Of a stretch of DNA of 31,750 bases, positions 9,409 through 31,749 are shown one piece after another. Both the position numbers and the translations under genes were made by a program. Position 1 is the first letter of the stretch, and each line of letters opens with the position of its first letter. The stretch is from a virus (lineage: Duplodnaviria; Caudoviricetes): the IMG/VR virus record IMGVR_UViG_3300020042_000990, positions 1-31,750 of that record, one strand, 5' to 3'. The notes under the pieces are model-generated. The model had not been told where the DNA came from. It saw only the letters and a list, made by a program, of their open reading frames with translations, and did no database searches.

Positions 9409-10950
9409 TTACGGGAGCGCTTTACCAGTAGGCGTGTTTGACGGTTGCAGCAACATACTTTGCATTTGCTGCTTAACCAACGCGGCCAGTGCCGGGTCTG
9501 TGCTCTCTAAAAGTTTAAGCGCTGTTGGGTCTTTGGCATAAGCGGTTATTAAAGAGGACAGCCCTTTTGAATCCGTCCCCATAAGTGCTGAGTACCTTTT
9601 GAGACCGACTTCCAAATTACCTTTACCAAGGTCACGCGCCATGCGCTCTATGCCGGAAGGCATATTGGCAACACGTTCTCTGGACTGGCGATCAAGTGCT
9701 GATTGCTGAATTGCTATATCGTTTGCAATTCCAGCGCGGGCATCCGTTCGGTTCTCACCGTAAATCTTCATACGGGCATCAATCTGGTACTGCTGCCCAG
9801 CCAATGACGCGTCCCGGATGTCTTTGTTTGCGGCGCGAACGGCACTCTTGTCCATCATGGACTGGTTCTGCTTCAGTTCGTCTGTGCGATCACGGGCCTC
9901 GTCCAGTTTTTCCTGCGCCGCTTTCAGGTCTTTGATGCCGGACTGGTACTGTTTGAGACCCACACCCGCACCTTGAGCAATACCAGCAAGCCCGGGACCG
10001 CGAGACTGCATCATTGCCAGACCCGCTTCGAGTAAAGCCATGCCGGTGTTGGCATCTTTGGACTTGTCCAACTCGGTTTGACGTTTGTTAGTACGCTCTT
10101 CCCGGCCTTGAAACTGGTTAGCGCGAGCTGCAATATCTGCTTGCAGTTCTGTTTTGGCATCAGTTGCGCCTTTGTTGCGCTCGCGTACAAGTGCGTCCAT
10201 CGCCACCTGCTCGGGATTTACGGTTGGCCCCATTGCTGTTTGTGCAGCCTTCAACCGGTCAAGGTACGACAAGCCTGCCGGAGCCGCAGGCGCAGGAGCA
10301 CGGGGAGCGCCGGTACCCGCACCGGGCGCACCAACAACAGGAGGAATTTCAACTTTGGGAACAGGCGGTGTGTCAGATGTAAGGCCCGCAGGGAAACGAA
10401 CATCTCCACGGGTAAACCCTTGGTCAGCCACAAGCTGTCTGTTACGCGCAGTTTGCTCTGACAAGGACTCCGGGGCTGGCACAACCCTATTAGCTTCCGC
10501 CTGCTCTTGTAAAGACTCGAAGCGTTTTTGCTCAACGGGGGTTATGTTGGACCGCAGCCACCTTTCAAACGCGCTTCCGCCGGATTGAAAATGCTGCACG
10601 TCACCGCCATCCCCAAACGCCACAATGCCACCCTCGGCCATGCCCTGCATGTTGGGCGCTGGGAGAGCGCCGATACCCACATCTTCTGGCATGGGCTGGG
10701 CTTGCGCTTGGGGCATTTGAGGCTGTGGGGGCGGTGCCATCATCCCGGCAATACCCTGATCGACCACTTTGGGCTGCGGTGCCATACCTTGCTGGCCCTG
10801 CGCGGCATCGCGCATCTGCTTGCGGCGGTTGGACTCGGACAGCGCCAGCGACACCGTGTACGGGTCGTTCTTGTGCATCATGGCGTACTGCTGCAACGCT
10901 TGATCTGGCATCTTGGCCAGTTGCGAGGTAATCTGATTGACGTTAATCAT
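9409..10950 (-). CDS. Putative internal virion or DNA ejection protein (513 aa)
   Basis: Q/P/M-rich N-terminus, triple MAEGG-FGDGG-FQSGG motif, coiled coils, Gly-rich hydrophobic patch (GMALLEAGLAMM...GLAGIAQGAGVG). Lies between the nozzle-like gene and the giant gene. Confidence 0.65.
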   Translation of the reverse strand: MINVNQITSQLAKMPDQALQQYAMMHKNDPYTVSLALSESNRRKQMRDAAQGQQGMAPQPKVVDQGIAGMMAPPPQPQMPQAQAQPMPEDVGIGALPAPNMQGMAEGGIVAFGDGGDVQHFQSGGSAFERWLRSNITPVEQKRFESLQEQAEANRVVPAPESLSEQTARNRQLVADQGFTRGDVRFPAGLTSDTPPVPKVEIPPVVGAPGAGTGAPRAPAPAAPAGLSYLDRLKAAQTAMGPTVNPEQVAMDALVRERNKGATDAKTELQADIAARANQFQGREERTNKRQTELDKSKDANTGMALLEAGLAMMQSRGPGLAGIAQGAGVGLKQYQSGIKDLKAAQEKLDEARDRTDELKQNQSMMDKSAVRAANKDIRDASLAGQQYQIDARMKIYGENRTDARAGIANDIAIQQSALDRQSRERVANMPSGIERMARDLGKGNLEVGLKRYSALMGTDSKGLSSLITAYAKDPTALKLLESTDPALAALVKQQMQSMLLQPSNTPTGKALP

Positions 10951-10959
10951 GGTTTACCC

Positions 10960-12063
10960 TTACGCCATTCTTGAAATTGCCAACTCAGCCAGACCGGCAG
11001 GGCGGTCTACTACTGCGCCGCCTGCGGCACCAAACAACCCAAGTTTAGACGCGCCAAGCGCTGCCGTACCCAGACCCGTTGCGGTGGACAAGGCCGATGG
11101 TGGAGGCTGATAAATCTGCGATGACGACTGTGACAGGGGCAGACCACGCAGCATGTCGGATTGAAAGCCCAACTGCTTGTACGGGTAGTTCTGCTGGTTC
11201 AAGAAGTCTTGATACCGTTGCGACAGGATGTTCTGTTGCTGCTGCTGTTGCTGCGTGCCATACGATTGCTGGAGCTTGTTGATGTCCATGCCCTGAGCAA
11301 ACTGCTGTTGGCCAAGCGTGCCCATCTGACCGGCACCTTGCAGCGCGGTTTGAATCCCTTGAAGACCAAGACCTGCACCGTACTGTTTGGACTGCTCTCC
11401 AAGCTGTTGCGCTTGCAGGCCAAGGTTAGAGCCAAACTGTCTGGATTGCTCTCCGTACTGTTGCGCTTGCATGCGACGGGCTTGGTCGGCGTTGTATTGG
11501 GCTTGTGCTTGATTGTACGCGTTCTGTAAACCTGTGGCTTGAATGTCGCCTTTTTGCATAGACAAATTCCGGGCAGCTTCCGCGTCCATAATTGCTTGGC
11601 GGGAGCCACCAAATGCACCTGCACCGGTAGCTTGAGCGTTGCGTCCTTGAGTGGCAATGTCGCCTTGACGTTGGGCTTCTCGTTGCTGGATGTCAACAAC
11701 ACTCTGCATGTACGGGGACATGTACTGCTGCGCGTCTTGTTGCCCAAACTGCCCGCCTTGAAACTGTGTCGGGGTAAAGCCCGTTTGAAACGTAGAGGGG
11801 TCATATCTTGTGTTCAAAGCACCTAGCGTAGCTGCGCCAGCATACTGCCCACCAAGACCCGTCAAGCCAGAAGTTTGCATACCCTGCGCACCTTGGAACG
11901 CCTGCTGCTGCATTGGGGTAAACCCTGCAATCCTGTCGGCACCATAGGTTTGATACGGGGTTTCTGTTAGCGCCTCTGTCTTACCCAGCAGTTTCTCAAC
12001 ATACGGCTTTGCGTAGTCGGGGATGCTTGTCTGCGTAATCTGTGTTTGTGTTGGCTCTGCCAT
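10960..12063 (-). CDS. Putative DNA ejection or pilot protein (367 aa, Gln-rich)
   Basis: AAGGAG RBS. YMSPYMQSVV and GAFGGSRQA motifs, Gln-rich helical body, hydrophobic Gly-rich C-terminus (ATGLGTAALGASKLGLFG), as expected for podovirus ejection proteins. Confidence 0.7.
   Translation of the reverse strand: MAEPTQTQITQTSIPDYAKPYVEKLLGKTEALTETPYQTYGADRIAGFTPMQQQAFQGAQGMQTSGLTGLGGQYAGAATLGALNTRYDPSTFQTGFTPTQFQGGQFGQQDAQQYMSPYMQSVVDIQQREAQRQGDIATQGRNAQATGAGAFGGSRQAIMDAEAARNLSMQKGDIQATGLQNAYNQAQAQYNADQARRMQAQQYGEQSRQFGSNLGLQAQQLGEQSKQYGAGLGLQGIQTALQGAGQMGTLGQQQFAQGMDINKLQQSYGTQQQQQQQNILSQRYQDFLNQQNYPYKQLGFQSDMLRGLPLSQSSSQIYQPPPSALSTATGLGTAALGASKLGLFGAAGGAVVDRPAGLAELAISRMA
11360..11470 (-). repeat. 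18-aa tandem repeat (2 copies) in the Gln-rich protein
   Basis: QAQQYGEQSRQFGSNLGL followed directly by QAQQLGEQSKQYGAGLGL. Confidence 0.8.
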
Positions 12064-12093
12064 TACATGCTCCTTGCGGGATTCGTCACTTGG

Positions 12094-14067
12094 TTATGCG
12101 GGCAGCAGTTTTGCTGCGCGGGAGTTCGTTGCCACTTTGTCTTTGCCAACTGTTTTCTTGCGGGCTTTCTGCACCCGGTCCATCATGGCGTACAACTGAC
12201 GAGCGCCCGCTTCGGTGGAGCCGTTACCCAGCTCAGACACAATGCGTGCGGGGATTACAAACTCACCATCGGCAAGACGGGCTTGCTGTTTCCGGCCAAT
12301 CATTGCAGGGATAGAGTCAGACACACCATCGCCGGGGCCACGCAATAGCCTGCCACCGTCAGAGTAATCGCCAAGGTTATACGTACCACCTTGGGCTAGC
12401 GCAAGTAAACCGCCGTTGGCTAACGCCATTAGACCGCCACGAGCCGCGTCTTCAACGCCACTATCATCGTTGGCAACGGAGTCAGTATCGACGTTACTAG
12501 CTGCTGCCGCAGCTTCCATACTGGCTTGTGACATCGCTGGCCCGGTTGTGCCACCTTGACCATCATAGTCGCCCTCTTGGTCGCCTAAAGTACCCATCAA
12601 GCCGCCGCCGTACGTATAAGACCCCGGTATTGCATCGAGGTCGTTATCTTGAACATCTTGGTTCCTACCAGAAACAATTGAGTCGTTAAGCGCTGTCCCC
12701 CTGCCTTCCACAGGCGCATAGTTATTTTGGCCCACTTGCTTGCCGCCAAACATATTTGCAAGATAACCAAGTGCAATGGGGGCAAAAGCGCCGGGAACCA
12801 TTCCTTTTATGGCGCCTGTTCCTAAAGCGGTTAAATTTGTTATAAATGCGTTTTTTGGGTCTGCGAAATACTCCGCTCTACCTTTGTCAGACAGTGCTGT
12901 CCACGCAGGGTTTGGATCAACGTTGGGGTCGCTACTTCCGCCGGAGTCAACAACAGCCCCGGACGGCAAAATAGTTGTGGCCCCTTCCCCACTGGGTTTG
13001 GTGTAAAGCCCCGTCCGAGGGTCGTAGATGTAACCGCCAACGGAGCCACCCGCTGCCATATACTCCGGGCCGGGAGCCTTGTATGGGCTAAGCGCTGTGT
13101 ACTGATCGTTAAAATATTGACGCTCTCTGGACGACATTGGGTCGTTTTCGGTACGGTCAAAAGCACTGGGAACTTTGGTACGGGCGTACGTGTAGGGGCG
13201 GATCATGCCCGGACTTTGCGGAGTCGGAACTTTTTTGTCATCCGAGGAGAGCGCAGCGATACCAAGTGCGCCAAGCGGCATGGCGTTCTGTTTGGCAAAC
13301 TTTAACGCCGCGTCGGAGCTAGAAGTAACGGCGTTGTATCCCGCACCAAGCCTGTCCATTGGGGTTTTATTGGCCAAGGCCTTGGCAACTGCTTGTTGCT
13401 GATTTTGTTCGTTCATAAACGCAGCAGCGTTCTGCTCACGTACGGTTTGCGCGGCCAACTCGGCGGGACTAAGTGTTGGCGTAACGGTTTGGACACCTTG
13501 CGCTGCGTTGACTGCGGGTACTGTCTGGACCACTCCTGTTGGATAGTAGGCGCTGGCCACTTCATTTGTCGTGCTACCAAAAAGATTGGGGGTTGCTGTT
13601 GCAGAAACCGCACTTGGAGTAGCCGCTACAGGAACTGCTTGAGGAACAATAGATTCTGCGGCAACTTGTGGTGCGCCTGCGCCAGCGGCGGAAGAAATTG
13701 CGCCCGTACCTGCGCCCATTAGACTTTCACCTAGTCCAGAGCCGCCATAAGCACCCAGACCGGCCATCAAGCCTTTTTCTAAGCTGCCGGAAGTAAGAGC
13801 AGTAATGCCGCCAACTGTCAGGCCCGCCATAGTGGAAGACATCAACCCAAAACCGGCAGGGCCAAGCGCAAAGCCCGCCACCATCGGCAAGATATTTTTC
13901 AAGAAGCCTGCTTCTGCCAGACCTGTCTCTGGATTGATGGTCAACGTGCCGCCGTGTTTGAGGGCAAGCGCTTGCAGACCCGCGACTTCTTCGGGAGCCA
14001 TGTGGACCAGCATGGAGTCTGACCCGCGACCAAGCGAAGCAAGTCCTTGTGCAGTTTGTTGGTTCAT
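12094..14067 (-). CDS. Putative internal virion or ejection protein (657 aa) with a tape-measure-like C-terminal module
   Basis: GAGGA RBS. N-terminal GRGSDSMLVHMAPEEV...INPETGLAEA motif, Gly/Ala hydrophobic stretch, low-complexity middle, C-terminal GPGDGVSDSIPA...ARLADGEFVIPA. Confidence 0.7.
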   Translation of the reverse strand: MNQQTAQGLASLGRGSDSMLVHMAPEEVAGLQALALKHGGTLTINPETGLAEAGFLKNILPMVAGFALGPAGFGLMSSTMAGLTVGGITALTSGSLEKGLMAGLGAYGGSGLGESLMGAGTGAISSAAGAGAPQVAAESIVPQAVPVAATPSAVSATATPNLFGSTTNEVASAYYPTGVVQTVPAVNAAQGVQTVTPTLSPAELAAQTVREQNAAAFMNEQNQQQAVAKALANKTPMDRLGAGYNAVTSSSDAALKFAKQNAMPLGALGIAALSSDDKKVPTPQSPGMIRPYTYARTKVPSAFDRTENDPMSSRERQYFNDQYTALSPYKAPGPEYMAAGGSVGGYIYDPRTGLYTKPSGEGATTILPSGAVVDSGGSSDPNVDPNPAWTALSDKGRAEYFADPKNAFITNLTALGTGAIKGMVPGAFAPIALGYLANMFGGKQVGQNNYAPVEGRGTALNDSIVSGRNQDVQDNDLDAIPGSYTYGGGLMGTLGDQEGDYDGQGGTTGPAMSQASMEAAAAASNVDTDSVANDDSGVEDAARGGLMALANGGLLALAQGGTYNLGDYSDGGRLLRGPGDGVSDSIPAMIGRKQQARLADGEFVIPARIVSELGNGSTEAGARQLYAMMDRVQKARKKTVGKDKVATNSRAAKLLPA

Positions 14068-14095
14068 GGAGTCCTCTGAAATCGGGGGTGGGTCG

Positions 14096-14104
14096 AGTTT
14101 ATCA
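14096..14104 (-). promoter_or_regulatory. Putative extended -10 promoter (TGATAAACT) before the ejection-protein module
   Basis: TG-n-TAAACT overlaps the upstream stop codon and is followed by a short leader containing the RBS. Confidence 0.4.
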
Positions 14105-14416
14105 TGGTACTACCTTTAACACGTTTGACGCTGATGTGTCGTAGTAAACGTCCCCAGTTTTGAGCTTGCCTAATGCTAGGTCCGCCTGTGTTGGAAGACT
14201 GACACGCAAAGTCCCAACGGTTACTCCGGGCTGGCTAAAACTGAGCGCAGTGGTAATCTTTCCGGCAACATTTTGCGTAGACGCCAGCATAGAGCCGGGG
14301 TTGTCTAGCTCGTTAAAGTACAGGCGTATGGAGCTAATCAACGCCTCCATATACTGCGGGTCGTATTCAGCCGGTGGGTTGGGTAAGCGCGGTGCGCGGA
14401 CTAGGGGGTTGCTCAT
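14102..14416 (-). CDS. Small putative tail protein downstream of the nozzle-like gene (104 aa)
   Basis: Closely coupled ORF. Pro-rich N-terminus, helix IRLYFNELD, beta-rich end GDVYYDT...LKVV. Function inferred from position only. Confidence 0.6.
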   Translation of the reverse strand: MSNPLVRAPRLPNPPAEYDPQYMEALISSIRLYFNELDNPGSMLASTQNVAGKITTALSFSQPGVTVGTLRVSLPTQADLALGKLKTGDVYYDTSASNVLKVVP

Positions 14417-14418
14417 TT

Positions 14419-16593
14419 TTACCTTCTTCCGTCTGGACGCACGTCAATGGATGGCACGCCAAGCTGCCACTGCACGCCAAGCCCGTCGGAGCTTATTTTG
14501 AACGCCATCTGCCTGCCACGAACACGCACGTAGATGATCTGCGTAAACTGCTGCACCGTATAGTTTCGCTGTGCCTGATAGTTCTGGGTACTTGTAACGG
14601 CTGGAGTTGCGGCAGTGCTGTAGTTTGAACCGGGGTTCTGTCGTGGTCGCATAGTGAAAGTAACCGACGGATTATTAACAGACGAGCCATCAAACGTAAT
14701 ATCTGGAACCATCCGCCAAACAAACCCGTAGTTGTGCCCGTCGCCAATGTCAAAATCAGCGGACTGAATGTACGAACTAATAGCCGATGGCGGGTTGGTT
14801 GTGCCGTCATCTACACCATTCTCGTGATACACAAGTTTGTTACCGTAGGTAGTTGCCATAGGCTGAATCCGCAGAGGACTGTCTATCCACGCAGTACGGG
14901 CCAGAGTTCCGTAAGACCAGACTTTTTCAAGGTAGTTATAAATAACATAACTGTCAATTGTTGTTGACCCTGATGAGCAGTAGTACCACCAGACTTCATT
15001 AAATCCCTCATTGGTCCCTGAGAAAAACTGGAACGACTGAGATAAATTTATGTTGCCGTAAATATACTGACGAAGTGGGCAGTACAGCGTTTCCACCCGG
15101 CCAGAGTATATGTAGAACTTGTCTACACCCATCCAGTAAACAACATTGTTTGCCGTGGCCGTTGCGTTTGGACTAACAATGGATAAGTTGTCTGCAAGCA
15201 GTTGAAAACCCCATACATACGGGGGGCCAAGGTACTGCATGGAATAAATGGCGGCGTCCGTCCAGACCAAAATCTCTTGCCGAGCCTGTAGGGCGGAAAC
15301 GATCTGGGATCCGTGACTGAGTGTGTAGCTGCCTGCTTGGTTGGTAATAGCGGGTGTCCACTGCGTATAGTCTGATTGGTCTGACCAGCGTATCAGCATG
15401 GGGTTCTGGGTAGCGGAACCGTAGTCGTTTACACCAAAGCAAAGAACAAAGCGTGAAGCGTCCGACACCATGACAAAGTTACAGATGTCTGGGGTATCCC
15501 CGGCAGTGAGTAAGATTCCCCGGTCGTAAATATTTGGATTGGCGTTGGTGTTCCAGTAGTACAGCCCGCCGCCTCTTGGATTAAAGATCAAATCTTCGCC
15601 GTAGTTGGACTGACTCCAAAGACGAAGCTGCACGCCGATGCCAACACCAGAGGCCGCTGGTGATCCCCAACCTGTGCTTGTGTACCCGGTAGTAATGCCG
15701 CCCCAACCGCCAGCGCCCCAACCGACGTTTTGTGTGTAAACAGCGGAGCCGGTTGTGATTTGATACGCAGCCACTGTAGCCCCGCCGCCATTGCCGACAT
15801 CCGAGGCATTTGCTGCAATGGTAGAAGTGATTGTGTAAATGTTGTTGCTGGTAACAGTGGCTACGCGGTACTCTTTGTTAAGCACGGTAGCGGTAATTCC
15901 TGTGGTCAAAGCAAAAGTTTGAGTTCCTACCCCCACAGTTGTTATGTCAATTGCAACGCCGCCGGATGTTAAAGAAAGTTTGCACGAAGCTGCGGGTGTA
16001 TTACTATTAACAACAAAATAGGTAATGCCGGTTGACAACCCTGCTGGCGCGGATGTAGTTGTAAATAATTGGAGTGTTGTTCCGTTTGCAAGTGCCGTGG
16101 TAAAAATAATTGTGTCTGTAGCTATATCGGCTGTATAAGTTTGGGTGCTTAAGGCAATAGCGCCACTGTACGTAACAAAGTCCCCAGCTTGCGCCCCGTG
16201 CCCGGCATTGGTAACTGTTAGGGTGGTCGAGCCGTTAGCGGCTGAAAAAGTTACAGCCCCCGGAGCGGTGGTGAGTCGGATAGGGGTGATGTCGTAGAAC
16301 GTGCCACCCGTATCACTCTGGATGTAAAACTTGAGGTTAGTTCCAATGCCCAGCAGGTTGTAGTTAGACAGTGTGATCCAGTTCCACAAAGACCGGCAGA
16401 CGCCCCAGAACGATCCCGCAGGCGGAGCCAGCGTAGCATTTGATGTGCCCGTATCAGCAACCCATCCGCCAATCTTTTCTGGATAGCCCGAACGAAAACG
16501 AACTTTATCCATCTCAAAGTACGTGCCCTCGTTGGCAAGCGTAGTTGACTCTCGGTTTACACCGGGACGAAGTTTAAGTTTTTGCAGTGGCAT
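14419..16593 (-). CDS. Tail nozzle or stabilisation protein (T7 gp12 / P22 gp10-like beta-propeller) with inserted beta domains (724 aa)
   Basis: N-terminal LRPGVNRE...VRFRSGYPEKIGGW, propeller-type W/Y-rich blades (IRWSDQ, VYWMG..FYIYSG.V, EVWWYY, YNYLEKVWSYG), C-terminal RVRGRQ...DVRPDGRR. Size and position before the ejection genes fit. Confidence 0.75.
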   Translation of the reverse strand: MPLQKLKLRPGVNRESTTLANEGTYFEMDKVRFRSGYPEKIGGWVADTGTSNATLAPPAGSFWGVCRSLWNWITLSNYNLLGIGTNLKFYIQSDTGGTFYDITPIRLTTAPGAVTFSAANGSTTLTVTNAGHGAQAGDFVTYSGAIALSTQTYTADIATDTIIFTTALANGTTLQLFTTTSAPAGLSTGITYFVVNSNTPAASCKLSLTSGGVAIDITTVGVGTQTFALTTGITATVLNKEYRVATVTSNNIYTITSTIAANASDVGNGGGATVAAYQITTGSAVYTQNVGWGAGGWGGITTGYTSTGWGSPAASGVGIGVQLRLWSQSNYGEDLIFNPRGGGLYYWNTNANPNIYDRGILLTAGDTPDICNFVMVSDASRFVLCFGVNDYGSATQNPMLIRWSDQSDYTQWTPAITNQAGSYTLSHGSQIVSALQARQEILVWTDAAIYSMQYLGPPYVWGFQLLADNLSIVSPNATATANNVVYWMGVDKFYIYSGRVETLYCPLRQYIYGNINLSQSFQFFSGTNEGFNEVWWYYCSSGSTTIDSYVIYNYLEKVWSYGTLARTAWIDSPLRIQPMATTYGNKLVYHENGVDDGTTNPPSAISSYIQSADFDIGDGHNYGFVWRMVPDITFDGSSVNNPSVTFTMRPRQNPGSNYSTAATPAVTSTQNYQAQRNYTVQQFTQIIYVRVRGRQMAFKISSDGLGVQWQLGVPSIDVRPDGRR

Positions 16594-16598
16594 AATTC

Positions 16599-16607
16599 AT
16601 TTTCTCA
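16599..16607 (-). promoter_or_regulatory. Putative extended -10 promoter (TGAGAAAAT), possibly producing a leaderless mRNA
   Basis: Motif ends 5 nt before the ATG at 16593, and no good Shine-Dalgarno sequence is present. Confidence 0.35.
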
Positions 16608-16611
16608 CGTA

Positions 16612-17034
16612 TCAGGCAAAAGGTCGAGTGCCTGCTTTGTCTATGATAAGCGCCTGTCTGCGTGGGGTTCCGTCTGATGTGTTTGTCACGCTGATGTGCG
16701 TCCAAGCATCGAACTCACGGATGATCTGGTCAAAGGGTAAACCCGCAGCAATGACTGCCCTGACCACAGCATCAGGGGTCATACCGGGAACACGGAAGTC
16801 ACAAGCGGCTCCTACCCTATGTTGGCTGGAGTCTTTTGAACCAACCGAATCATTCACGGCCTTAGACCGGAACCCAGAGTTAATCATGATCGGCTTGCCG
16901 TCCAGCGCTTCTTTGACCTGCTCTAAGAACTCCGCAAGTCGTTGTAGGTTGGCGGTCTCGGCTTCGTTTGGCGTGTTGTCAAACTGCCTGTGACTGGTGG
17001 CGGTCAGTTCCGCAAGAGTGAAGTGTGGTGTCAT
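16612..17034 (-). CDS. Endolysin, peptidase M15A (Peptidase_M15_3) Zn metallopeptidase (140 aa)
   Basis: HFTLAEL start, INSGFRS...N..VG...SQHRVGAACD and WTHIS zinc-ligand motifs. ATGA overlap with the holin candidate. Confidence 0.9.
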   Translation of the reverse strand: MTPHFTLAELTATSHRQFDNTPNEAETANLQRLAEFLEQVKEALDGKPIMINSGFRSKAVNDSVGSKDSSQHRVGAACDFRVPGMTPDAVVRAVIAAGLPFDQIIREFDAWTHISVTNTSDGTPRRQALIIDKAGTRPFA

Positions 17035-17516
17035 TTTTTGCTCAACAAATCTGTCTTAGCCTGAGATCCTGCGGATGACCCAAAATAATACGCAATGATG
17101 CCCGTCCAAGCTGTGCCGAGACTTCCCAACATCATCAGGATGGCGGGGTTGCTGCTGTCCACTTTTCCAATGAACATCATTACCATAATTCCAAAAAAGC
17201 CCAGTGTGACTGTGCCTGCAAGTATTGGGGGCATCAGACTGCGGGTCTTGGACTGCATGTCCCGCGCTGATTTTCTATCCTCAACTTCCAGCTTTTCAAA
17301 GTTAAGACCAAGCTCCTGCGCCTGCTTTTGCAATTCAATCTCGGCAATCTTGACCTGAGCAATCTGGTCTGCCGTCAGCTTGTTGCTGGAGATCAGGTCG
17401 CCAACCTTCTCAGGATCAACGCCAATTGCTTTTGAGATGGCAGACACCGCCATGCCAGCCAGTGGGCCACCGAGTGCGGTAGCGATTGTCGGTGCGATTT
17501 GTTTTAGCCAGTCCAT
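17031..17516 (-). CDS. Putative holin (GTA 3TM-holin-like, 161 aa)
   Basis: Hydrophobic N-terminus (IAPTIATALGGPLAG), coiled coil ending EDRKSARDMQ, two TM helices and a YYFGSS tail. Directly upstream of the endolysin. Confidence 0.75.
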   Translation of the reverse strand: MDWLKQIAPTIATALGGPLAGMAVSAISKAIGVDPEKVGDLISSNKLTADQIAQVKIAEIELQKQAQELGLNFEKLEVEDRKSARDMQSKTRSLMPPILAGTVTLGFFGIMVMMFIGKVDSSNPAILMMLGSLGTAWTGIIAYYFGSSAGSQAKTDLLSKK

Positions 17517-18124: not shown

Positions 18125-18126
18125 AA

Positions 18127-18606
18127 TCAGCACCGCCCGCCGCACTGCTCAAAGATGCCAAAGACAAAGTACAAAATTATTCCCAGCATGGCGGTAAACA
18201 CCAGTCCTAGCAATGCCAACTCAATGACTTCATCAATTTCTTTTTTGCGTCTTGCAGCAAGTTCTTTTTCTCGCCTAGCATCATGAGCAGATTCGACATC
18301 CATCGCCGCTGCTCTGGTCTTAATCTTGTTCCAAACATCTATCTTGCCAGCCTGCATAAACAACAACTGCAACTCATCTTCAAACCGCTTAGCCTGATCG
18401 AGCGCCATCTCAATTTGGATGGCAGTCCCCATCGATGATTTGGACTTCTTGGCCTGTACCGCAGCCTTGGTCGCCGTGGACTTCGCATCAAAATACTTGC
18501 CCAGTACAGGCCCGAGAGAGCTCACGTCATCAACAGTCTTGCTGACCTTCTTGATTAGCGCAACCGCTGCCTGTATCCCCGCCAGTGCCGTTAGCGGGTC
18601 AATCAT
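18127..18606 (-). CDS. Membrane protein with a C-terminal TM helix in the lysis cassette (159 aa), function unknown
   Basis: GGAGG RBS at 18613-18617 supports the ATG at 18606 (MIDPLTALAG). Helical body and C-terminal TM LALLGLVFTAMLGIILYFVFGIF. Confidence 0.75.
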   Translation of the reverse strand: MIDPLTALAGIQAAVALIKKVSKTVDDVSSLGPVLGKYFDAKSTATKAAVQAKKSKSSMGTAIQIEMALDQAKRFEDELQLLFMQAGKIDVWNKIKTRAAAMDVESAHDARREKELAARRKKEIDEVIELALLGLVFTAMLGIILYFVFGIFEQCGGRC

Positions 18607-18763: not shown

Positions 18764-18797
18764 CAGGGGCTTTCAACTTGTTTGGCTCAGTTAAAAA

Positions 18798-20066: not shown

Positions 20067-20087
20067 AGGTGTCCTTTAGTTCCGGGT

Positions 20088-22695: not shown

Positions 22696-22704
22696 GTTCT
22701 GTCC

Positions 22705-24750: not shown

Positions 24751-24764
24751 CTGTAACCCCTATC

Positions 24765-25160
24765 TCAACTTATCACTTCGTAGGAGATACTGTATGTGAT
24801 GCCACTGGCTGTACCGGATGTGACAGTAATTGATGTGCCTTCCATCAGATATATCGCCGTGGTTTTGTCAGTCACGATCAACGAAGCATCAGCAGGGACA
24901 GACACTGTGGACACGATTGGGTACGCCGTACCGCCCGAAGGAGCAGAGCCTTGAGCTACAGCGCCGTTACTGTAGATAGACACGGTGGTGTCCACTGCCG
25001 CAGAACCGTTTACGTTGGCAGCAACAATCTGGTTAATCTTGAACACCTGACCGCTTGAGGCGGCATTAGGAACAAGAACAACTGCGGCTGTACCCGAGGG
25101 GGTGTAATAAGTTGTTGTGCCTGACGCTGTGGTCGCGGCGAAAAGATTTGGATTTGCCAT
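24765..25160 (-). CDS. Small beta-rich virion protein of the fibre module (131 aa)
   Basis: TAAGGA RBS. MANPNL start, KINQIVAANVNG, VPADASL and SYEVIS motifs, Thr/Ser/Ala-rich, flanked by fibre genes. Confidence 0.7.
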   Translation of the reverse strand: MANPNLFAATTASGTTTYYTPSGTAAVVLVPNAASSGQVFKINQIVAANVNGSAAVDTTVSIYSNGAVAQGSAPSGGTAYPIVSTVSVPADASLIVTDKTTAIYLMEGTSITVTSGTASGITYSISYEVIS

Positions 25161-25175
25161 GATAGTTCCTTAAAA
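25152..25175. repeat. 24-bp exact direct repeat, copy 1 (stop-RBS-start junction)
   Basis: ATTTGCCATGATAGTTCCTTAAAA, identical to 27185-27208. Confidence 0.9.
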
Positions 25176-26192
25176 GCCAAAGACCATTGCGATTGCCGTT
25201 GCCTTCGCTTGAGATACACCAGAAGCCGCAGGTGCGGTTGATTGCCAAGTTGTGCCGTTGCTTGTCAGCACATTACCGTTTGTGCTTGGCGCTACAAACA
25301 AAGGAGCAGATGTACCGTTACCTAAGATGACGTTGTTAGCTGTTAGGGTAGCCAAGCTTGTGCCGCCGTTAGCTACTGGAAGAGTCCCAGTCACGCCCGT
25401 GGTTAGCGGCAATCCAGTTAAGTTAGTTGCTGTCCCGCTACTTGGTGTTCCTAATACACCGCCATTGACAACAGGTGCGCCAGCAGTTCCCACGGCTACG
25501 GCTAAAGCAGTTGCTACGTTAGCGCCTAATCCACTGACGCCAGTGGAGATTGGAAGACCTGTAATATTGGTTGCTGTGCCACTAGAGGGTGTTCCAAGTG
25601 GCCCACCATCTTTAATTAGCATTGTCCACACACCGCCATGAGCAAAGTACATTGCGGCTGTAGAGTGAGCGTGTGCTATTGCTCCATGATATGTACTAGC
25701 AGACGGAAATGATGCTGGGTCATTCCAATAAAAAGGAATAACTGACCCTGCTGATGGCGCTGTAATTGCACCATCGTCAGCTATCGTCACCAAAGACGTT
25801 TGGATTATGTTTCCGGCTGTCGTGTCAAACCGTGTAATAGCATTATCTGAAGGAACAATACTTCCAGTCGTATTGCCGTATATGGCCCGTCCAGCAGGGT
25901 AGGTTACAAAGACATCTTTAGTGCCAGCAGAAAAACTTAACGCCGAAGGCTGTGTTCCTGAGCTATTTGCTAAAACAGTTGTCCGAGCTAAGGTCGTTCC
26001 CGAAGAGGTGTATGTACCAATGCCCACCTCCCACTCGTTGCCTATCTGGGCTGCAATGGTGTAGTAGGTTGTGTTGGCATTACCAACTACCGCAAAGGAT
26101 TGAAACCCAGTAGTTGCGCCGCCAAGCGTAATAGTCCCCGTACCAGTTGTGGTGGTGGTCTCCTTTACGCGGTCTGCAATAACTATAGCCAT
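25170..26192 (-). CDS. Tail fibre protein (340 aa)
   Basis: TAAGGA RBS. DRVKETTTTTGTG...WEVGIGT...GTKDVFVTYPA N-terminal domain, duplicated GGxLGTPSSGTATNxTGLP, GTLPVANGGT, C-terminal KATAIAMVFG. Confidence 0.8.
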   Translation of the reverse strand: MAIVIADRVKETTTTTGTGTITLGGATTGFQSFAVVGNANTTYYTIAAQIGNEWEVGIGTYTSSGTTLARTTVLANSSGTQPSALSFSAGTKDVFVTYPAGRAIYGNTTGSIVPSDNAITRFDTTAGNIIQTSLVTIADDGAITAPSAGSVIPFYWNDPASFPSASTYHGAIAHAHSTAAMYFAHGGVWTMLIKDGGPLGTPSSGTATNITGLPISTGVSGLGANVATALAVAVGTAGAPVVNGGVLGTPSSGTATNLTGLPLTTGVTGTLPVANGGTSLATLTANNVILGNGTSAPLFVAPSTNGNVLTSNGTTWQSTAPAASGVSQAKATAIAMVFGF

Positions 26193-26233
26193 ATGTATCC
26201 TTATTCTGTCTCAACTAAAGACCTGTTAAAAGT

Positions 26234-26680
26234 TTAAGAAGTATTGACCAAAATCCAGTAAACGGGAAAAACAGTTCCGACGCTCCCGTTTGCTTGAACT
26301 CCAGACAAAGCAATTGATTTTAAAGCTACAACGGTTCCAACATTTCCGGATGCCGAAACTCCTGTTAACGCAAAATCTTTCCCGAAAGATGCCGTGCCAA
26401 CCGCCCCAGATGCAACCACACCTGATAGCGCAACCGTGGTAGAAGGAACAACTATTCCAACTAAGCCTGCCGCCGCATCGGTAGAAAGTGCTTGGCCTTC
26501 TGCGTAAGTTACTACTCCAACAAGACCTGAAGCTGCAACTCCTGTCAACACAAATGACGCATTCCCAAAAGAAACAGTCCCAACCGCTCCGTCCGCAGAG
26601 ACTCCCGTCAGAGGAGTCGATACTAACGTCTGATTGAGCGCAGAAAATGGAGCTTCTGCAAATGCGGATATGCCAAACAT
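26234..26680 (-). CDS. Repeat-rich putative virion fibre or whisker protein (148 aa), probably C-terminally truncated
   Basis: MFGISAFAEAPFS start, six repeats of about 20 aa of type L(T/S)GVxAxGxVGTV. The frame continues 10 codons past the stop to a second TAA at 26201-26203. Confidence 0.75.
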   Translation of the reverse strand: MFGISAFAEAPFSALNQTLVSTPLTGVSADGAVGTVSFGNASFVLTGVAASGLVGVVTYAEGQALSTDAAAGLVGIVVPSTTVALSGVVASGAVGTASFGKDFALTGVSASGNVGTVVALKSIALSGVQANGSVGTVFPVYWILVNTS

Positions 26681-26701
26681 TACGGCCTACACCGCTTCGG
26701 G

Positions 26702-27193
26702 TTAAGTTGTAGCCAAGCGAATTAACGCTGCTGCTGTTGTGTTTGCAGGCATTGTTAGCGAAAACGAGCCCGCCGTAACAGTCTGCGAACCAAACGTGTG
26801 AACGCTGATGGCCTTATTACTCTGAGTTGCGTTGTAAAACAACACGCAATCAAACGCCGTTGACAAAGTCACTGTTGTAAAGGTCAAGCTAGCTGAGGGC
26901 GTAAAAAACGCCACGCCTGCTGTTGCCGATGTATTGGTTGAAGATGGCGCTGTTGCATTTGTTACTGTAATACCACCAGCGGTATAGTTAGTGCCAGACA
27001 CTTCACCTGTTGCCGTGTAAACAGTGGTTGCCGCATTGATTGTTGCCGTCGTCAAATACAAAGCCGCTTTAAGCGTGTCTGTAGTTGGTGAAGTCAGGCT
27101 GGTGCGAGAGATAAGCGTTGCAGTGCCAAGCTGGTGCTCGCCAACCATAAGCTGTTGCATAAACGAAGTACACATTGATTGGGTATTTGCCAT
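26702..27193 (-). CDS. Putative virion structural protein (163 aa), paralog of 27394-27819
   Basis: TAAGGA RBS. MCTSF..LM.G, LKAALY.T.AT..A.TT.YTATGE, YTAGG and ALIRLA are mirrored in the paralog. Confidence 0.75.
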   Translation of the reverse strand: MANTQSMCTSFMQQLMVGEHQLGTATLISRTSLTSPTTDTLKAALYLTTATINAATTVYTATGEVSGTNYTAGGITVTNATAPSSTNTSATAGVAFFTPSASLTFTTVTLSTAFDCVLFYNATQSNKAISVHTFGSQTVTAGSFSLTMPANTTAAALIRLATT

Positions 27194-27208
27194 GATAGTT
27201 CCTTAAAA
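27185..27208. repeat. 24-bp exact direct repeat, copy 2
   Basis: Identical to 25152-25175. Confidence 0.9.
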
Positions 27209-27394
27209 AGATGCCACTGAGCTAGTGAGCGTTACGGTTTTCTTTAACTGAACATGCGCTGAACGATGCACAAGTTCGCCATCCAACCAATACTCCACCC
27301 AAGTGGTGTACTCGTTGTCATTATCAACGAAACCTTCTTTTTTTTCAAGAAGAGTCTCGTCCATCTCGCCTTTGGTTGTGGTTACAAGTGCCAT
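27203..27394 (-). CDS. Small acidic hypothetical protein (63 aa)
   Basis: TAATG coupling with the upstream gene; its stop forms the next RBS. WVEYWLDGELVHRSAHV core. Confidence 0.75.
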   Translation of the reverse strand: MALVTTTKGEMDETLLEKKEGFVDNDNEYTTWVEYWLDGELVHRSAHVQLKKTVTLTSSVASF

Positions 27395-27819
27395 TACGCT
27401 ATCCTTATGATTGCTGAAGTGTTTGATACAGCGGGGAACTGTACCGTGAATGTTGCAGTTGAAGTCTTATCTGCACCGAAATCAAGCACACAAACTGCGG
27501 GGCTTCCGCCGCCATTTTGATAAATCAAAGCTCCGCGAGCGGTTAGCGCCGAAGTCCAAACTGCGTTGTCAAATGAGATATAGGCGGTGCTGCCTGAGTT
27601 GCCTACCGTGGGAGCCTGCGCAATCGTGAGTGCCAGTCCACCAGCCACGTACCCAGAAGCCACAGTTTCGCCCGTAGCCGTATAAGCCGTGGTAGACGCA
27701 TCAAGTGTGGCTGCATTGGTATAGAGTGCAATATAGAACGTCCCCGAAGTAAAGTTGAACGTACCGTTCATCAACCCAGTCTTAAAGACATTGCAGGAGA
27801 AGTTGCCTGTGAAAGCCAT
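27394..27819 (-). CDS. Putative virion structural protein (141 aa), paralog of 26702-27193
   Basis: TGATG overlap supports the ATG at 27819. FK..LM.G, FYIALYT..ATL.A.TTAYTATGE, ARGALIY, VLDFG.DK and AIIRIA motifs. Confidence 0.75.
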   Translation of the reverse strand: MAFTGNFSCNVFKTGLMNGTFNFTSGTFYIALYTNAATLDASTTAYTATGETVASGYVAGGLALTIAQAPTVGNSGSTAYISFDNAVWTSALTARGALIYQNGGGSPAVCVLDFGADKTSTATFTVQFPAVSNTSAIIRIA

Positions 27820-28556
27820 CAACGCACCCCGTTATTCTGCGGCAAAGGCGCTTGACGGTACTGACCACTGCGATATGCGTCGGATCGCTCAAGTCCATCA
27901 CCAAGACGTTGAGCCAGTGCAAGAGCTTCTTTGTACTTACCGTCGTATAAGCCAATGATGTCCGGCTCACCCTTCATAAAGGTATATGCCTCAACCAGCG
28001 AGCCATACAACAGAACGGTGTCAAAGTTATCGCCCAGCCAAGTTGTAGTTGCCGTAGTGATTGACTCGGGGTAGTAGTAGTAATGCAACTCTACGTAATA
28101 CGTAGCATCAGGTGTTGGGCCAAGAATAAGAGACAGCTCCGTTGTAATTGCTGAATTGAGAATTGTTGGGCCAAACAAAGCATAATATTTTGGCTCGCCC
28201 GTGTCATTTGGGGTTGGGTATGCTTGCCTGATGAAGTTTACATCCTTATTGAGTAAGTACTCAAACGTGCCCGTATCCAAGTTTGCATTAGTTACACCCG
28301 TTACCAACGCCAAGGAATACACAGACAAGAAATCATTTGGTAAAGATATGTACTTGTTGTTTGCCGTGATTGCAGAAAACATATTCTTACGAATGGACGG
28401 GAACTGAACTGAGTTGTATATACGTTGTTCAGCCTGCGTAATGAAGGTATTGATCTGCGTGGTTGCAGATACAGTAGCTTGACTCGCAAGGTATACATCG
28501 GGGAACTGATTCTCCGTGTATGTCTGAATCGTGTTATACAACGTCGTGTAATTCAT
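27819..28556 (-). CDS. Head-tail adaptor-like protein (T7 gp11-type fold inferred, 245 aa)
   Basis: Helical N-terminus (FITQAEQRIYN), beta insert with LP.DF, GEPKYY and GPTPD..Y, helical C-terminus LLYGSLVEA. ATGA overlap with the upstream gene. Confidence 0.65.
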   Translation of the reverse strand: MNYTTLYNTIQTYTENQFPDVYLASQATVSATTQINTFITQAEQRIYNSVQFPSIRKNMFSAITANNKYISLPNDFLSVYSLALVTGVTNANLDTGTFEYLLNKDVNFIRQAYPTPNDTGEPKYYALFGPTILNSAITTELSLILGPTPDATYYVELHYYYYPESITTATTTWLGDNFDTVLLYGSLVEAYTFMKGEPDIIGLYDGKYKEALALAQRLGDGLERSDAYRSGQYRQAPLPQNNGVR

Positions 28557-28819
28557 GCCATCGGGCCTCGTGCCATCAGACCTTTAGTAGCTGCGCCAGT
28601 ACCACGGACTTTGATACCGTCGGTTTTGACTTGCTTATTGTCAACATTTTTGCTGATGTTGCCAACGCTCATATTGACCGTGTCAGCTTTGCTGCGGTTT
28701 GGCTCTTTGCCGGGGGTGGAGGAAATTTTCATTGCCTTACCATCCATAGTGTGTGGCTCGGCATAGACACTTGCGCCGCCAACTTCTTTACCGTCTCGTT
28801 TCATGCTGAATTTAGCCAT
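28553..28819 (-). CDS. Small basic protein (88 aa), possible internal head or DNA-binding protein
   Basis: TAATG coupling, K/G/M-rich, C-terminal GIKVRGTGAATKG. Confidence 0.75.
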   Translation of the reverse strand: MAKFSMKRDGKEVGGASVYAEPHTMDGKAMKISSTPGKEPNRSKADTVNMSVGNISKNVDNKQVKTDGIKVRGTGAATKGLMARGPMA

Positions 28820-28998
28820 TATTTGCCCCTTTGGTTGGCTACTTTAGCCATACCACGACCCATACTCATCATCATCTCATTGGTCTTGCCGCCTTTGGCT
28901 AGCTTTGTCATAGGCTTGCCGGGATGAAGCCTTTTCTCGTGCTTATGCACGGCTCCAGCCATCATCTTTTTGTCCTGTTTTAAATCTTTCTTGTCCAT
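28819..28998 (-). CDS. Small basic protein (59 aa)
   Basis: TAAGGAG RBS at 29005-29011 supports the ATG at 28998. K/M-rich, HKHE..LH and LAKGG motifs. Confidence 0.75.
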   Translation of the reverse strand: MDKKDLKQDKKMMAGAVHKHEKRLHPGKPMTKLAKGGKTNEMMMSMGRGMAKVANQRGK

Positions 28999-29008
28999 CA
29001 CTGACTCC

Positions 29009-29398
29009 TTATGTCGTTGCTATTGTTACTGTACCAAGTTCCACAACTAAAACCAAGTTATTTGGGGTCAAAACCGAGTCAAAACTGGATGAACCACCGA
29101 CTGGGTTCCACCCCCACTGAAACACTCGACTACCGCCTCCGTTGTATCCATCAGCTAGATCACCAGAAACTTGATAGCTTGTATCTGGCCTTGGCTCACG
29201 CACTGCCTGAGGATCACTTACCGGATACATACCCAACTGAAGCTGCGGCTGATCTGGATCCCAGCAAGATTTGCAGACTTTGATGTTGTATATCTTGGTT
29301 TTAACAACCTGCTTACGCAACTCCTGCAACTTGTACCGCTGCCCACACCTGTCGCATTCAGCAATTGAATATTTACCTGAGGCAAATCTAGTTGGCAT
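29009..29398 (-). CDS. Zn-ribbon protein of the structural operon (129 aa)
   Basis: GAGGTG RBS. CDRC...CKSC cysteine pairs, followed by PQLQLG and DPQAVREPRPD. Confidence 0.8.
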   Translation of the reverse strand: MPTRFASGKYSIAECDRCGQRYKLQELRKQVVKTKIYNIKVCKSCWDPDQPQLQLGMYPVSDPQAVREPRPDTSYQVSGDLADGYNGGGSRVFQWGWNPVGGSSSFDSVLTPNNLVLVVELGTVTIATT

Positions 29399-29406
29399 AG
29401 CTCACC

Positions 29407-30330
29407 TCAGTAGAACAACTGCCTTGGGACAAACCGCTCTGGGGCTTTCTCACGGTCTTCTTGGGATGCCAACAGCCATTGCTGCTCGTACTCACCTTTT
29501 AAAAATGCTACACGATCAGGAGAAACTTCAGGCCGCTTAGAACCGACGTAAAACGCCAAACCAGCCACCATACAAGGAATTAGACGGAAAGGGATGTCTT
29601 GCACGTTCACGCCGTTGCCAGCATCATGAAGTCTACGCAGTCTCCAATACACAAAGGTGTAGTCCCCACCAGCATTCGGAGTAGGCCAGACATTGATACA
29701 GGGCAAGTTTTGCGAATAGATTGCCGCGCCAGTTGTATGCGCCGCTGCCGTGGTGTAGTTCTGCCCACGGGTGCAATTTATTAAGCTGTTACCGTCTACG
29801 TTGGTATAGCCAATCGTCTCGGAATCAATCTTGATAAACCCTGTAGTAGTTAACCCTGATGTACTGCTAAGCACGATCGTTGTTGCAGTGCTGGTAATTG
29901 TGCCATTTAGAGTAACCGAAGTCACATTTGTCTGCGCCGTTTGACGATTAATCCACACCTCGATTGGACGCCCAGTCGTAAGTTTGTTTGGAATGGTGGA
30001 GTAGGTAGGCTCAGAGATACGGCTGATGTTGACGTCTGTCTGATTTGATGCCGTACCGTTGTTTTGTCGAATGACATGGTCAAGCAAGTCAATCGTGTCT
30101 TCTGGGAGTGGGTACACCGCCTGCCCAGTCACAAGTGCGATCGCGCCTTCTTCCACAGTCCACAAATTGATACCACGATTCGCCCACTCAATTGTCAACA
30201 GGTTCAGTGAACGGCGTGCCGTACGAAACTCATAGCCAGTACGAACCTCTAGACCCGCCCGCTCATACGCTTCCTCGATCATCTCATTGAGATCAAGGTT
30301 AAACGAGTTGGAAGAGGATACGTAAGCCAT
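29407..30330 (-). CDS. Second head-tail adaptor-like protein with an inserted beta domain (307 aa)
   Basis: Helical start (IEEAYERAG...ARRSLNLL..EW.N), YPLP, GRP and WPTP....Y motifs, helical end CMVAGLAFY. Thr-rich insert at about 29710-29930. Confidence 0.6.
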   Translation of the reverse strand: MAYVSSSNSFNLDLNEMIEEAYERAGLEVRTGYEFRTARRSLNLLTIEWANRGINLWTVEEGAIALVTGQAVYPLPEDTIDLLDHVIRQNNGTASNQTDVNISRISEPTYSTIPNKLTTGRPIEVWINRQTAQTNVTSVTLNGTITSTATTIVLSSTSGLTTTGFIKIDSETIGYTNVDGNSLINCTRGQNYTTAAAHTTGAAIYSQNLPCINVWPTPNAGGDYTFVYWRLRRLHDAGNGVNVQDIPFRLIPCMVAGLAFYVGSKRPEVSPDRVAFLKGEYEQQWLLASQEDREKAPERFVPRQLFY

Positions 30331-30677
30331 TATCTAAATCCTGCTGTTTTCTTTGCTATGCCTTTTGGCTGCGCTACGAATTGTTTTCCGGCTTTTTTGC
30401 CAGCGCGTTTCGCACGCGTTGTCGCAGCGTACTCAGCAGGGCTAAGACTTTTGATCGCAGCTTTTGGAAGGTATCGCTCACCTGTGTCAGAAGATTTTTT
30501 ACCACTTTTAGTTGTCCAATCTTGTTTGCCCCAGTCCTTTAAAGACTGTTGCGGTTTAGCCAACCCACCACCTGCCATCTTCTTACTTGCGCAATGCGCC
30601 TTTTCTGAAAACCCTTTTGGGCTATCACAGTTAATAGACGCTTTGCGCTTGTCAGACCATTTAGTCACGATACCCAC
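30330..30677 (-). CDS. Basic protein (about 112-115 aa; start may be the GTG at 30668): KWS..C..PKGFS..AHC module plus a DUF5872-like C-terminal half
   Basis: Very Lys-rich. SLKDW..QDW.TKSG, GERYLP.AA and GKQFV motifs. TAATG coupling to the next gene. Confidence 0.75.
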   Translation of the reverse strand: MGIVTKWSDKRKASINCDSPKGFSEKAHCASKKMAGGGLAKPQQSLKDWGKQDWTTKSGKKSSDTGERYLPKAAIKSLSPAEYAATTRAKRAGKKAGKQFVAQPKGIAKKTAGFR

Positions 30678-31092
30678 CGCCAGCAGCCTTGTACCGTTTA
30701 GCCATGACCTGTGCTTTTCTCGCGCTCCATTGCCCTGCGCCTGTACCTACGATTGCCGCAGCTTTGACGCTGTTGAAGATACGTTTGCGTAGCTCAGGCT
30801 TGGTGTAGTTACCCGCCTCGTTTACTTTGGATTTTGTTTCTCCGCCCTCTTTATAAGAGGCTGTCTTAGCTGCGTTGGCAAAGTCATTTTTCTTTGGAGC
30901 GCCCGACGAGCCCGCGCTGCGCATCTTCTCGCCAGAGCCTGCGGCTATCCGTTTTTTCTTGGCTGCAATGTTGGCGTACAAACCGCCCCCCGCATATGTC
31001 TCCACATCTTGTGGATCATCAGTACGCTTAATGGTTTTGCCCTTGGGCATCTTAGAAGGGCTGATAGCACCCATACCACGAGAGGACATCAT
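30661..31092 (-). CDS. Basic multi-module protein (143 aa)
   Basis: Three segments (SSRGMGAISPSK; GLYANIAAKKKRI..GSGEKMR; NYTKPELRK...GQWSARKAQ...YKAAGGGY) joined by YAGGG and YKEGG. Confidence 0.8.
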   Translation of the reverse strand: MMSSRGMGAISPSKMPKGKTIKRTDDPQDVETYAGGGLYANIAAKKKRIAAGSGEKMRSAGSSGAPKKNDFANAAKTASYKEGGETKSKVNEAGNYTKPELRKRIFNSVKAAAIVGTGAGQWSARKAQVMAKRYKAAGGGYRD

Positions 31093-31095
31093 GAT

Positions 31096-31662
31096 TTAGC
31101 ACACCTTTCCGCGAGTCTTACCTCGCTGAGCGATACCATCGGCGCGACTAGAAACTGAGCCACCTTTTTTAATGCCATATCTTTCTTTGCCTTCTTTTTT
31201 AGCTTGTTCCCGGCCTTCCATACTGAATGTCTTATCCAAATAGTTACCAATGCCTCTAGGTATACTCATGACGGCATCCCCTATGGCTGCACGATTGGCA
31301 ACTTTTTCTTCGTCAGTAGCGCCCGGTGCAAAATTTGTAGAAACTTTTGATGTGGGGGCAACTTTTTTTACGGGAGCAGCTTCGTTTGCTGGAGCAACTT
31401 CTTTTACAGGATCAGCTTTTTTTGCAGGCGCTGAGTCTTTTACAGGATCAGCTTTTTTTGCAGGCGCTGAGTCTTTTACAGGATCAGCTTTCTTTGCAGG
31501 CATTGAATCTTCGCCCCTACGCCGTAACCCCTTGTCTGCATTCAACAAGTCGCGTAAAGATTTATCTTCGCCATACTGACTTTTAAAATCAGCAAGCTCT
31601 TTAGCAGACACCATGGCCTTGCCATCTTTGACTTCACGATCTGGTTTGGGTGTGTATGCCAT
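31096..31662 (-). CDS. Lys/Ala/Pro-rich protein with a tandem repeat (188 aa)
   Basis: TAAGGAG RBS at 31668-31674. Three PAKKADPVK repeats. C-terminal IKKGGSVSSRADGIAQRGKTRGKVC. Confidence 0.8.
   Translation of the reverse strand: MAYTPKPDREVKDGKAMVSAKELADFKSQYGEDKSLRDLLNADKGLRRRGEDSMPAKKADPVKDSAPAKKADPVKDSAPAKKADPVKEVAPANEAAPVKKVAPTSKVSTNFAPGATDEEKVANRAAIGDAVMSIPRGIGNYLDKTFSMEGREQAKKEGKERYGIKKGGSVSSRADGIAQRGKTRGKVC
31400..31501. repeat. 36-bp in-frame tandem repeat, about 2.8 copies
   Basis: TCTTTTACAGGATCAGCTTTTTTTGCAGGCGCTGAG at 31400 and 31436, with a partial copy (one mismatch) at 31472. Confidence 0.95.
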
Positions 31663-31671
31663 GATTACTCC

Positions 31672-31749
31672 TTAGCAGGCTTTGCCGCCCATGTTCATCT
31701 TGACCATTTTGCCTTTGGTTTTGCCTTTTGTAGCAACACCGTCAGCGGC
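31672..31749 (-). CDS. 3' end of a basic protein entering from beyond the window
   Basis: Translated by hand: ...AADGVATKGKTKGKMVKMNMGGKAC-stop. The stop forms the TAAGGAG RBS of the next gene, and the motif matches the end of 31096-31662. Confidence 0.75.
   Translation of the reverse strand, partial: AADGVATKGKTKGKMVKMNMGGKAC

Follow-up and report, generated by a model that had tools for sequence, protein, structure and literature searches.

The targeting peptide of the internal proteins of phage T4 is N-terminal and is removed by the phage gp21 protease. The African swine fever virus (ASFV) protease and the C39 leader peptidases cut at di-glycine sites with a hydrophobic residue upstream of the Gly-Gly, and the C39 system has a single N-terminal leader that ends in GG. 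Here we describe a hydrophobic-x-x-Gly-Gly motif in putative internal proteins encoded by the IMG/VR virus record IMGVR_UViG_3300020042_000990. The stretch analysed (the window) is the entire record of 31,750 nucleotides, on which the virion-module genes lie on the minus strand; open reading frames (ORFs) are designated by their leftmost position (Table 1). Judged from its gene content, the virus is a short-tailed phage, and the motif-bearing proteins are probably internal, given their gene position, one family match and their composition.

T4 internal proteins are diverse, small and unrelated, and have one common short terminal peptide (PMC3012670); likewise, a tag of ~25 residues occurs in 100 of the 293 dereplicated ORFs, from at least 40 families, of a small-gene array found after the capsid gene in relatives. 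Unlike the T4 peptide, the tag is typically C-terminal, no prohead protease was found in the relatives by Pfam and PHROG searches of their head genes and whole records, and packaging is here a prediction. With its C-terminal tag, and with the protease not found, the system is not a member of the T4 type.

The cargo protein C1 of crAss001 (gp45), whose place in the virion is proven and whose gene follows the nozzle/muzzle gene (PMC10172136), is punctuated by the same A-x-G-G motif, and its resolved pieces lie between motifs; the main text of that paper makes no mention of the motif. It differs from the window's proteins in its portal-bound domain (PF25725), which has no demonstrable homology to the module discussed next. 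The tape measures JBD30 gp46 (PMC11445458) and Douge gp16 (PMC13033339) contain a module, headed by the motif, that is homologous to the C-terminal end of the 12094 protein. The authors of the JBD30 study predicted a 'hook' at this place, where both the hook and its cleavage are predictions, and we call the module the hook. The C-terminal region of lambda gpH (PMC12617516) has a similar motif-headed module, although that link is statistically weak. In long-tailed phages the hook module is loaded in the tail tube and has a second motif behind it, whereas the podovirus hook has an extra C-terminal helix and ends its protein. The relatives of the virus in a phage collection, HTVC023P, MinM2, Caulobacter RW, DSL-LC04 and CRP-902, share the gene order adaptors, nozzle, hook protein, ejection proteins and large protein; hook and motif are present in all of them except CRP-902, which has neither. 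Protein identity to these relatives is below 60%, except for DSL-LC04 compared with itself.

The motif and its distribution

The first-pass annotation had listed 15 peptides in eight proteins as instances of a shared hydrophobic-x-x-GG code. All 15 were located in their ORFs, on the minus strand, and 13 have M, F, Y, L or I three residues before GG, the exceptions being GAAGG (10960) and AARGG (12094). In these eight proteins GG alone is not enriched (31 copies versus 27.8 after shuffling), whereas the pattern [MFYL]xxGG is (15 versus 4.4, a count reached in 0 of 2000 shuffles); the remaining 21 ORFs of the window show no enrichment (11 versus 10.0). Because the eight proteins had been picked post hoc, we retested the pattern in homologues from 160 IMG/VR loci, dereplicated at 80% and with the window left out. 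The observed counts exceeded the expected ones in the families of 30661 (202 versus 24), 12094 (248 versus 82), 9409 (35 versus 8), 10960 (139 versus 74) and 28819 (13 versus 1.6). There was no enrichment in portal (1 versus 6.3), nozzle (9 versus 53) or fibres (34 versus 36), nor in the family of the giant LPD38 protein. A counter-example is the 26702/27394 family (36 versus 5); it and a few small families are enriched for the loose pattern too, so that the looseness of the pattern lowers its specificity. The ORFs at 26702-27193 and 27394-27822 encode paralogous phrog_644 proteins with a Y-x-A-G-G site, which are not cargo-like despite this enrichment.

The consensus in relatives is [MFY]-[AK]-x-G-G-x-[VATL]. 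M, F or Y at position -3 is given both as 0.37 (against a background of 0.10) and as 70%, while M, I, L or V at -2 stands at 0.13 (background 0.18). When this strict pattern was counted in every one of the 470 ORFs called in five near-complete relatives, it was concentrated in the ejection cluster (38 versus 3.7 expected) and in the small-gene array that follows the capsid gene (33 versus 2.6), with 0 versus 2.7 in core structural proteins and 14 versus 9.3 in the rest. None was seen in capsid, portal, nozzle or giant protein of these five; the giant protein had 0 versus 1.5 expected there, and 3 versus 2.4 in the window. The motif is conserved at the protein level: 14 of the 16 Gly-Gly hexamers and every Ala codon are in use. 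The first Gly codon is GGC or GGT in 96% of motifs, and non-motif GG pairs are similarly biased (88%). In the 12094 family, five non-motif GG sites deeper in the variable region are retained in 0-2 of 42 homologues, far fewer than the best-kept motifs (Table 1), although aligning such short islands partly favours the motif.

Other features attributed to the motif fared unevenly. Tandem copies are indeed common, with 5, 8, 9 and 11 the most frequent spacings. The placing in flexible regions proved not to be specific, as predicted disorder at motif flanks (0.117) matches that in the rest of the same proteins (0.123). The G-[IL]-x-x-[LM] peptides said to lie nearby are enriched in three ejection-cluster families, but the small basic families have none, and a motif occurs within 15 residues of only 82 of the 301 copies; we therefore rejected them as part of the code. 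GLMAL and GLLAL overlap with the second Gly of the motif itself.

Seams, tag and hook

The proposal that the motif falls at borders between modules was borne out by PHROG borders, alignment ends and counts of fused and stand-alone modules. Three PHROG family borders in the window coincide with motifs. Among homologues, 1906 of 7077 internal alignment ends lay within 10 residues of a motif, compared with 653 for random positions, and ends clustered at motifs (0.127) more than at other GG sites (0.040). In the 10960 family, 28 of 55 representatives are at least 600 residues long, and in the examples read a motif cluster joins on a 9409-like body. Counted over redundant loci, the motif stands at the seam in fused forms of module C (58/60), module B (10/10) and the tag (103/128); with stand-alone modules it is mostly missing (DUF6321, 0/23; phrog_14910-type, 3/57; tag, 0/9; module B, 1/5). 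Because stand-alone modules lack it, the idea that the motif is purely a loading tag is weakened. What survives of the first-pass annotation is a shared protein-level code, limited to predicted internal proteins and located at module seams.

In the array, 150 of the 293 dereplicated ORFs carry the motif, and their proteins are basic. The tag, which the first-pass annotation did not mention, follows the pattern motif-x-V-x(2-6)-R-A-D-G-[CI]-A-x-[KR]-G-K-T-[KR]-G. Profile comparison of tag and hook was not significant, matches of the tag to PDB sequences were at chance level only, and 11 small-gene families gave no significant match to the inserts of crAss gp45. A predicted complex of the hook (residues 20-101 of A1) with the tag (A5) scored 0.00 with no controls folded, and is not used as evidence. 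The protein at 31096-31662 also contains three near-identical Lys/Ala/Pro-rich repeats of 12 residues with a histone-like composition.

The hook of 12094 is, by profile comparison, homologous to a tape-measure module with a motif-headed core and a conserved Asp and Gly-Glu. It aligned with a tape-measure-type profile at an hhalign probability of 98.5%, residues 568-620 scored 27 bits from a profile of this type, and the hook matched the Douge (E=2e-7) and JBD30 (E=0.09) tape measures; 77 of 89 hook members had PHROG tape-measure matches (E<=0.1). The DSL-LC04 copy matches 602 phage records, nearly all of them tape measures among the 60 listed, and the hook profile finds 14,115 clusters (50% identity). 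Tape measures have one motif on each side of the module, and Ala at -2 is the most conserved of the variable positions (93% and 91%). In lambda gpH, FATGG at 733 and YATGG at 778 flank a similar core, for which hhalign gave 36% to gpH 733-782, a pairwise comparison E=4e-4, and a profile freed of the lambda row 5.3 bits; a value of E=1.6e-9 for this link was set aside as circular.

Shallow profiles of the hook and the crAss gp45 domain gave 0.3-1% by hhalign, which is not significant, and an ESM Atlas lead of 0.83; PF25725 (gp45 425-552) had no Pfam match among 35 hook members. AlphaFold modelled the hook at a mean pLDDT of 57 (below 50 around the motif), which is too poor for fold searches to decide whether it has a protease fold: Foldseek found no match at E<=0.001, and the best Z in a VIA-wide search was 3.1. 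The N-module of 12094 (13900-14055) is highly conserved and, like the tape-measure hook, places an Asp ten residues ahead of a Glu; its profile comparison with the hook was not significant.

Presence of the motif goes with presence of the hook. The two ejection proteins carry it in 98 of 102 hook-bearing loci (215 copies versus 30.7 expected), compared with 1 of 18 hook-less loci of CRP-902 type (1 versus 4.1), although the hook-less loci form a single lineage (8 clusters at 80%), and most hook-bearing loci were retrieved with a hook query. Dropped from this contrast were L206, L243 and L404, in which the caller had missed the hook, and five loci with <4 kb upstream. Caulobacter RW has the hook, yet its two ejection proteins lack the strict motif. 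In the hook-less L421:7865-9202, L430:7862-9229 and L432:7691-9199, the gene at the hook-protein position ends in another conserved module of ~100 residues with Cys, His and Trp, which could be a replacement reader or enzyme. Four CRP-902 proteins, gp72, 68, 66 and 65 (L405:445-1755, 2614-3360, 3619-4155 and 4155-5696), have a common N-terminal M-A-N-P-[VI]-K and a similar hydrophobic pattern, possibly an alternative T4-like address.

Cut site, docking site or hinge

The reading that we put first, tentatively and short of calling it probable, is that the motif is a conserved module seam that would be cut at maturation between the hydrophobic residue and Ala/Lys, with separate modules as addresses. 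Motif-bearing proteins would be packaged in the head, and conserved end modules (the C-terminal tag, the hook and N-terminal caps) would act as loading addresses. Ahead of ejection, seam cuts inside the assembling particle would then detach cargo from its address and divide fused modules, a scheme that would operate like the T4 targeting peptide plus a maturation cut. Candidates for the enzyme are the hook, with its invariant Asp and Glu, or a host protease; M, Y and F form a chymotrypsin-like P1 set.

Such a cut would differ from those of the di-glycine proteases, to which the motif had first been likened. The enriched M, F or Y sits at -3 rather than -2, and this register also excludes C39 leaders. 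Motif copies are internal, multiple or C-terminal, and few of those in the array (8 of 333) come within 6 residues of the N-terminus. A search of phage genomes (hosts not covered) found a C39 peptidase in 0 of 5 near-complete relatives, the control being positive in 7 of 14 genomes. The adenovirus protease AVP also has a hydrophobic residue upstream of Gly-Gly, at P4 of its consensus (M/I/L)-x-G-G, two places before GG (PMC4246237). Being one place off register, the motif does not belong to this consensus, and the adenovirus/C39-type reading fails.

Evidence on cutting itself comes from crAss001 and lambda. The portal-bound piece of gp45 seen by cryo-EM (residues 425-552) starts at the Ala of N-A-F-G-G and stops seven residues before FAYGG (PMC10172136). 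A cut after GG is thus argued against, since the density keeps A-F-G-G joined to the downstream domain, unlike in substrates of di-glycine proteases; the structure is compatible with a cut before Ala, or with no cut. Residues 214-245 form a second piece, located in the tail; according to the authors' proposal, an uncut bridge of 179 residues runs through the portal, whose bore narrows to ~25 Å (PMC10172136); twelve such linkers beside DNA would seem hard to fit. The motif recurs in gp45 (91 copies versus 19 expected, 21 homologues), and none of the four mass-spectrometry peptides quoted in the text of the paper spans a motif. Lambda gpH is cut to ~78 kDa and ~14 kDa, at a site and by an enzyme that the 2025 paper calls unknown (PMC12617516). 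A cut before A734 of FATGG would give 79.8 and 12.5 kDa by computation, and one at the second motif 84.6 and 7.7 kDa.

Several observations weigh against a cut. Strong prime-side specificity for GG-x-V is unusual for a protease. The search for a maturation protease that had been proposed as a check found none by Pfam in two near-complete relatives (80 and 97 ORFs), where the only matches were an M15 endolysin, a terminase intein and, below threshold, a SprT-like one. Of 333 array motifs, 44 are at most 5 residues from the C-terminus, tandem copies are suited to avidity, and the hosts span several phyla. One copy (LKHGG) lies within a conserved N-module, and the phrog_14910-type module has the motif in only 2 of 14 apparent fusions, probably through start-calling noise. 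The hook-gpH homology is weak without the lambda row. The crAss001 authors model gp45 uncut (PMC10172136), and in lambda residues 818-849 of gpH are resolved with MRDGG intact, while gpH* is placed at roughly residues 1-710 (PMC12617516).

Much of this would suit an uncut docking handle, a possible reading in which we place rather less confidence: the motif, as a beta-turn-beta element, would bind the hook (or the portal or inner shell) and gather cargo by avidity. Tandem copies 5-11 residues apart, copies at extreme C-termini, the motif on either side of the tape-measure hook, the co-occurrence of motif and hook, the negative protease searches, the ordered AFGG on the crAss001 portal and the intact lambda MRDGG all speak for it. 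Against it, stand-alone modules mostly lack the motif, and the giant protein is motif-free. The Caulobacter RW hook occurs without the strict motif in the two ejection proteins, and the co-loss, seen in one lineage, is equally consistent with a hook-dependent cut. Because the motif is distributed only at seams, we lean slightly to a release site over the uncut handle.

That the motif is a passive hinge, a linker tolerated wherever modules fuse or shuffle and with no specific reader, is improbable. Its seam location, the commonness of Gly-Gly turns and the freely varying copy number fit a hinge, but there is position-specific selection at -3, -2 and +3, tape measures and crAss gp45 have the same consensus, other modular proteins such as fibres and the giant protein lack it, and so does the entire hook-less lineage. 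Chance, or a DNA-level repeat such as a recombination site in Gly-rich genes, is scarcely credible: the eight window proteins show no excess of GG as such and the first Gly codon is biased, but the enrichment holds out-of-sample, and we rejected a DNA repeat on the codon variety and on a bias common to ordinary GG pairs.

Returning to the cut seam, a broader form of it is doubtful in our estimate. Short-tailed phages, crassviruses and long-tailed phages might share one undescribed system, in which the hook, of ~55 residues, would be or recruit a protease for hydrophobic|A-x-G-G seams of all ejected proteins. This would account for a lambda cut at F733|A734 and for the locations at which gp45 is split, and the tag would be a portable head-loading address.

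Gene content and significance

Family matches (Pfam/PHROG) in the window comprise two SU10-type adaptors, tail fibres, an M15 endolysin, the nozzle/stabilisation protein (14419), the DNA ejection protein 10960 and the giant LPD38 protein. As podovirus ejection proteins, predicted from family and from a place between the nozzle gene and the giant protein, 10960 is assigned by phrog_4287 and 9409 and 12094 by position alone; Pfam and PHROG searches with 9409 gave no match. The giant protein (5-9334) is of polyvalent type and motif-free. In related contigs, the small-gene array at which the window stops is directly preceded by terminase, portal, GroES-like, scaffold-like and capsid genes; the GroES-like gene is at L145:4752-5186 and equivalents, and L605:1-2202 (G1209) shows an intein in the large terminase.

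Table 1. Coordinates of motif-bearing and related features in the window
Feature	Position	Strand	Remarks
Giant 3109-aa LPD38 protein, ejection cluster	5..9334	-	PF18857; negative control without motif
Predicted ejection protein 2, 513 aa	9409..10950	-	N-terminal cap, triple motif cluster, long charged/Ala-rich body; sits after phrog_4287 gene
Motif cluster MAEGG / FGDGG / FQSGG	10576..10641	-	GG retained in 13, 11 and 5 of 13 homologues, respectively
Predicted ejection protein 1, 367 aa	10960..12063	-	phrog_4287 DNA ejection protein, E=4e-15
GAAGG, degenerate copy close to 10960 C-terminus	11017..11031	-	18 short homologues: GG in 14, [AKS]xGG in 13, hydrophobic -3 in 9
Predicted hook-bearing cargo protein, 657 aa	12094..14067	-	Conserved N-module, Gly/Ala-rich hydrophobic stretches, variable middle, motif cluster, C-terminal hook
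Hook, residues 568-657 of 12094 (last ~90)	12094..12366	-	Tape-measure module homologue; invariant Asp and Glu
Tandem cluster AARGG / LANGG / LAQGG / YSDGG heading hook	12352..12447	-	GG retained in 0, 11, 35 and 41 of 42
MAAGG, conserved island amid variable sequence of 12094	13045..13059	-	GG retained in 40/42, flank identity 0.24
Motif-free C-terminal variant of the tag's second half, 88-aa basic protein	28553..28606	-	In 22 representatives, family ~31
60-aa basic protein	28819..29001	-	LAKGG at 28888-28902, retained 12/12
Small basic protein	30330..30677	-	phrog_14910 starts (residue 38) where MAGGG (30564-30578) ends; ORF start before motif uncertain
Three-module basic protein	30661..31092	-	N-module, YAGGG (30982-30996), phrog_16028 (residues 37-79), YKEGG (30841-30855), phrog_17747 (85-142)
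C-terminal ~25-residue tag headed by IKKGG (31159-31173), in 188-aa protein 31096-31662	31096..31173	-	Tag alignment
5'-truncated ORF end (25 codons in window)	31672..31749	-	Tag second half, then MNMGG (31684-31698), stop three residues on

A literature search that covered few subscription journals turned up no paper that describes the motif or gives mapped cut sites. The C-terminal tag, the contrast between stand-alone and fused modules, the co-absence of motif and hook, and the prediction of a cut before Ala are new here. For the lambda gpH cut and for crAss001 gp45 this prediction can be tested cheaply and at the level of single residues; if the motif is a cut site, it would suggest where the lambda tape measure is cut. 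As a candidate tool, the C-terminal tag might serve to load proteins into phage heads. Beyond T4, T7 and P22, little is known of how ejection proteins are directed into heads and set free, and the clade in question is abundant, as the number of hook-profile clusters indicates, its relatives including HTVC023P-type pelagiphages.

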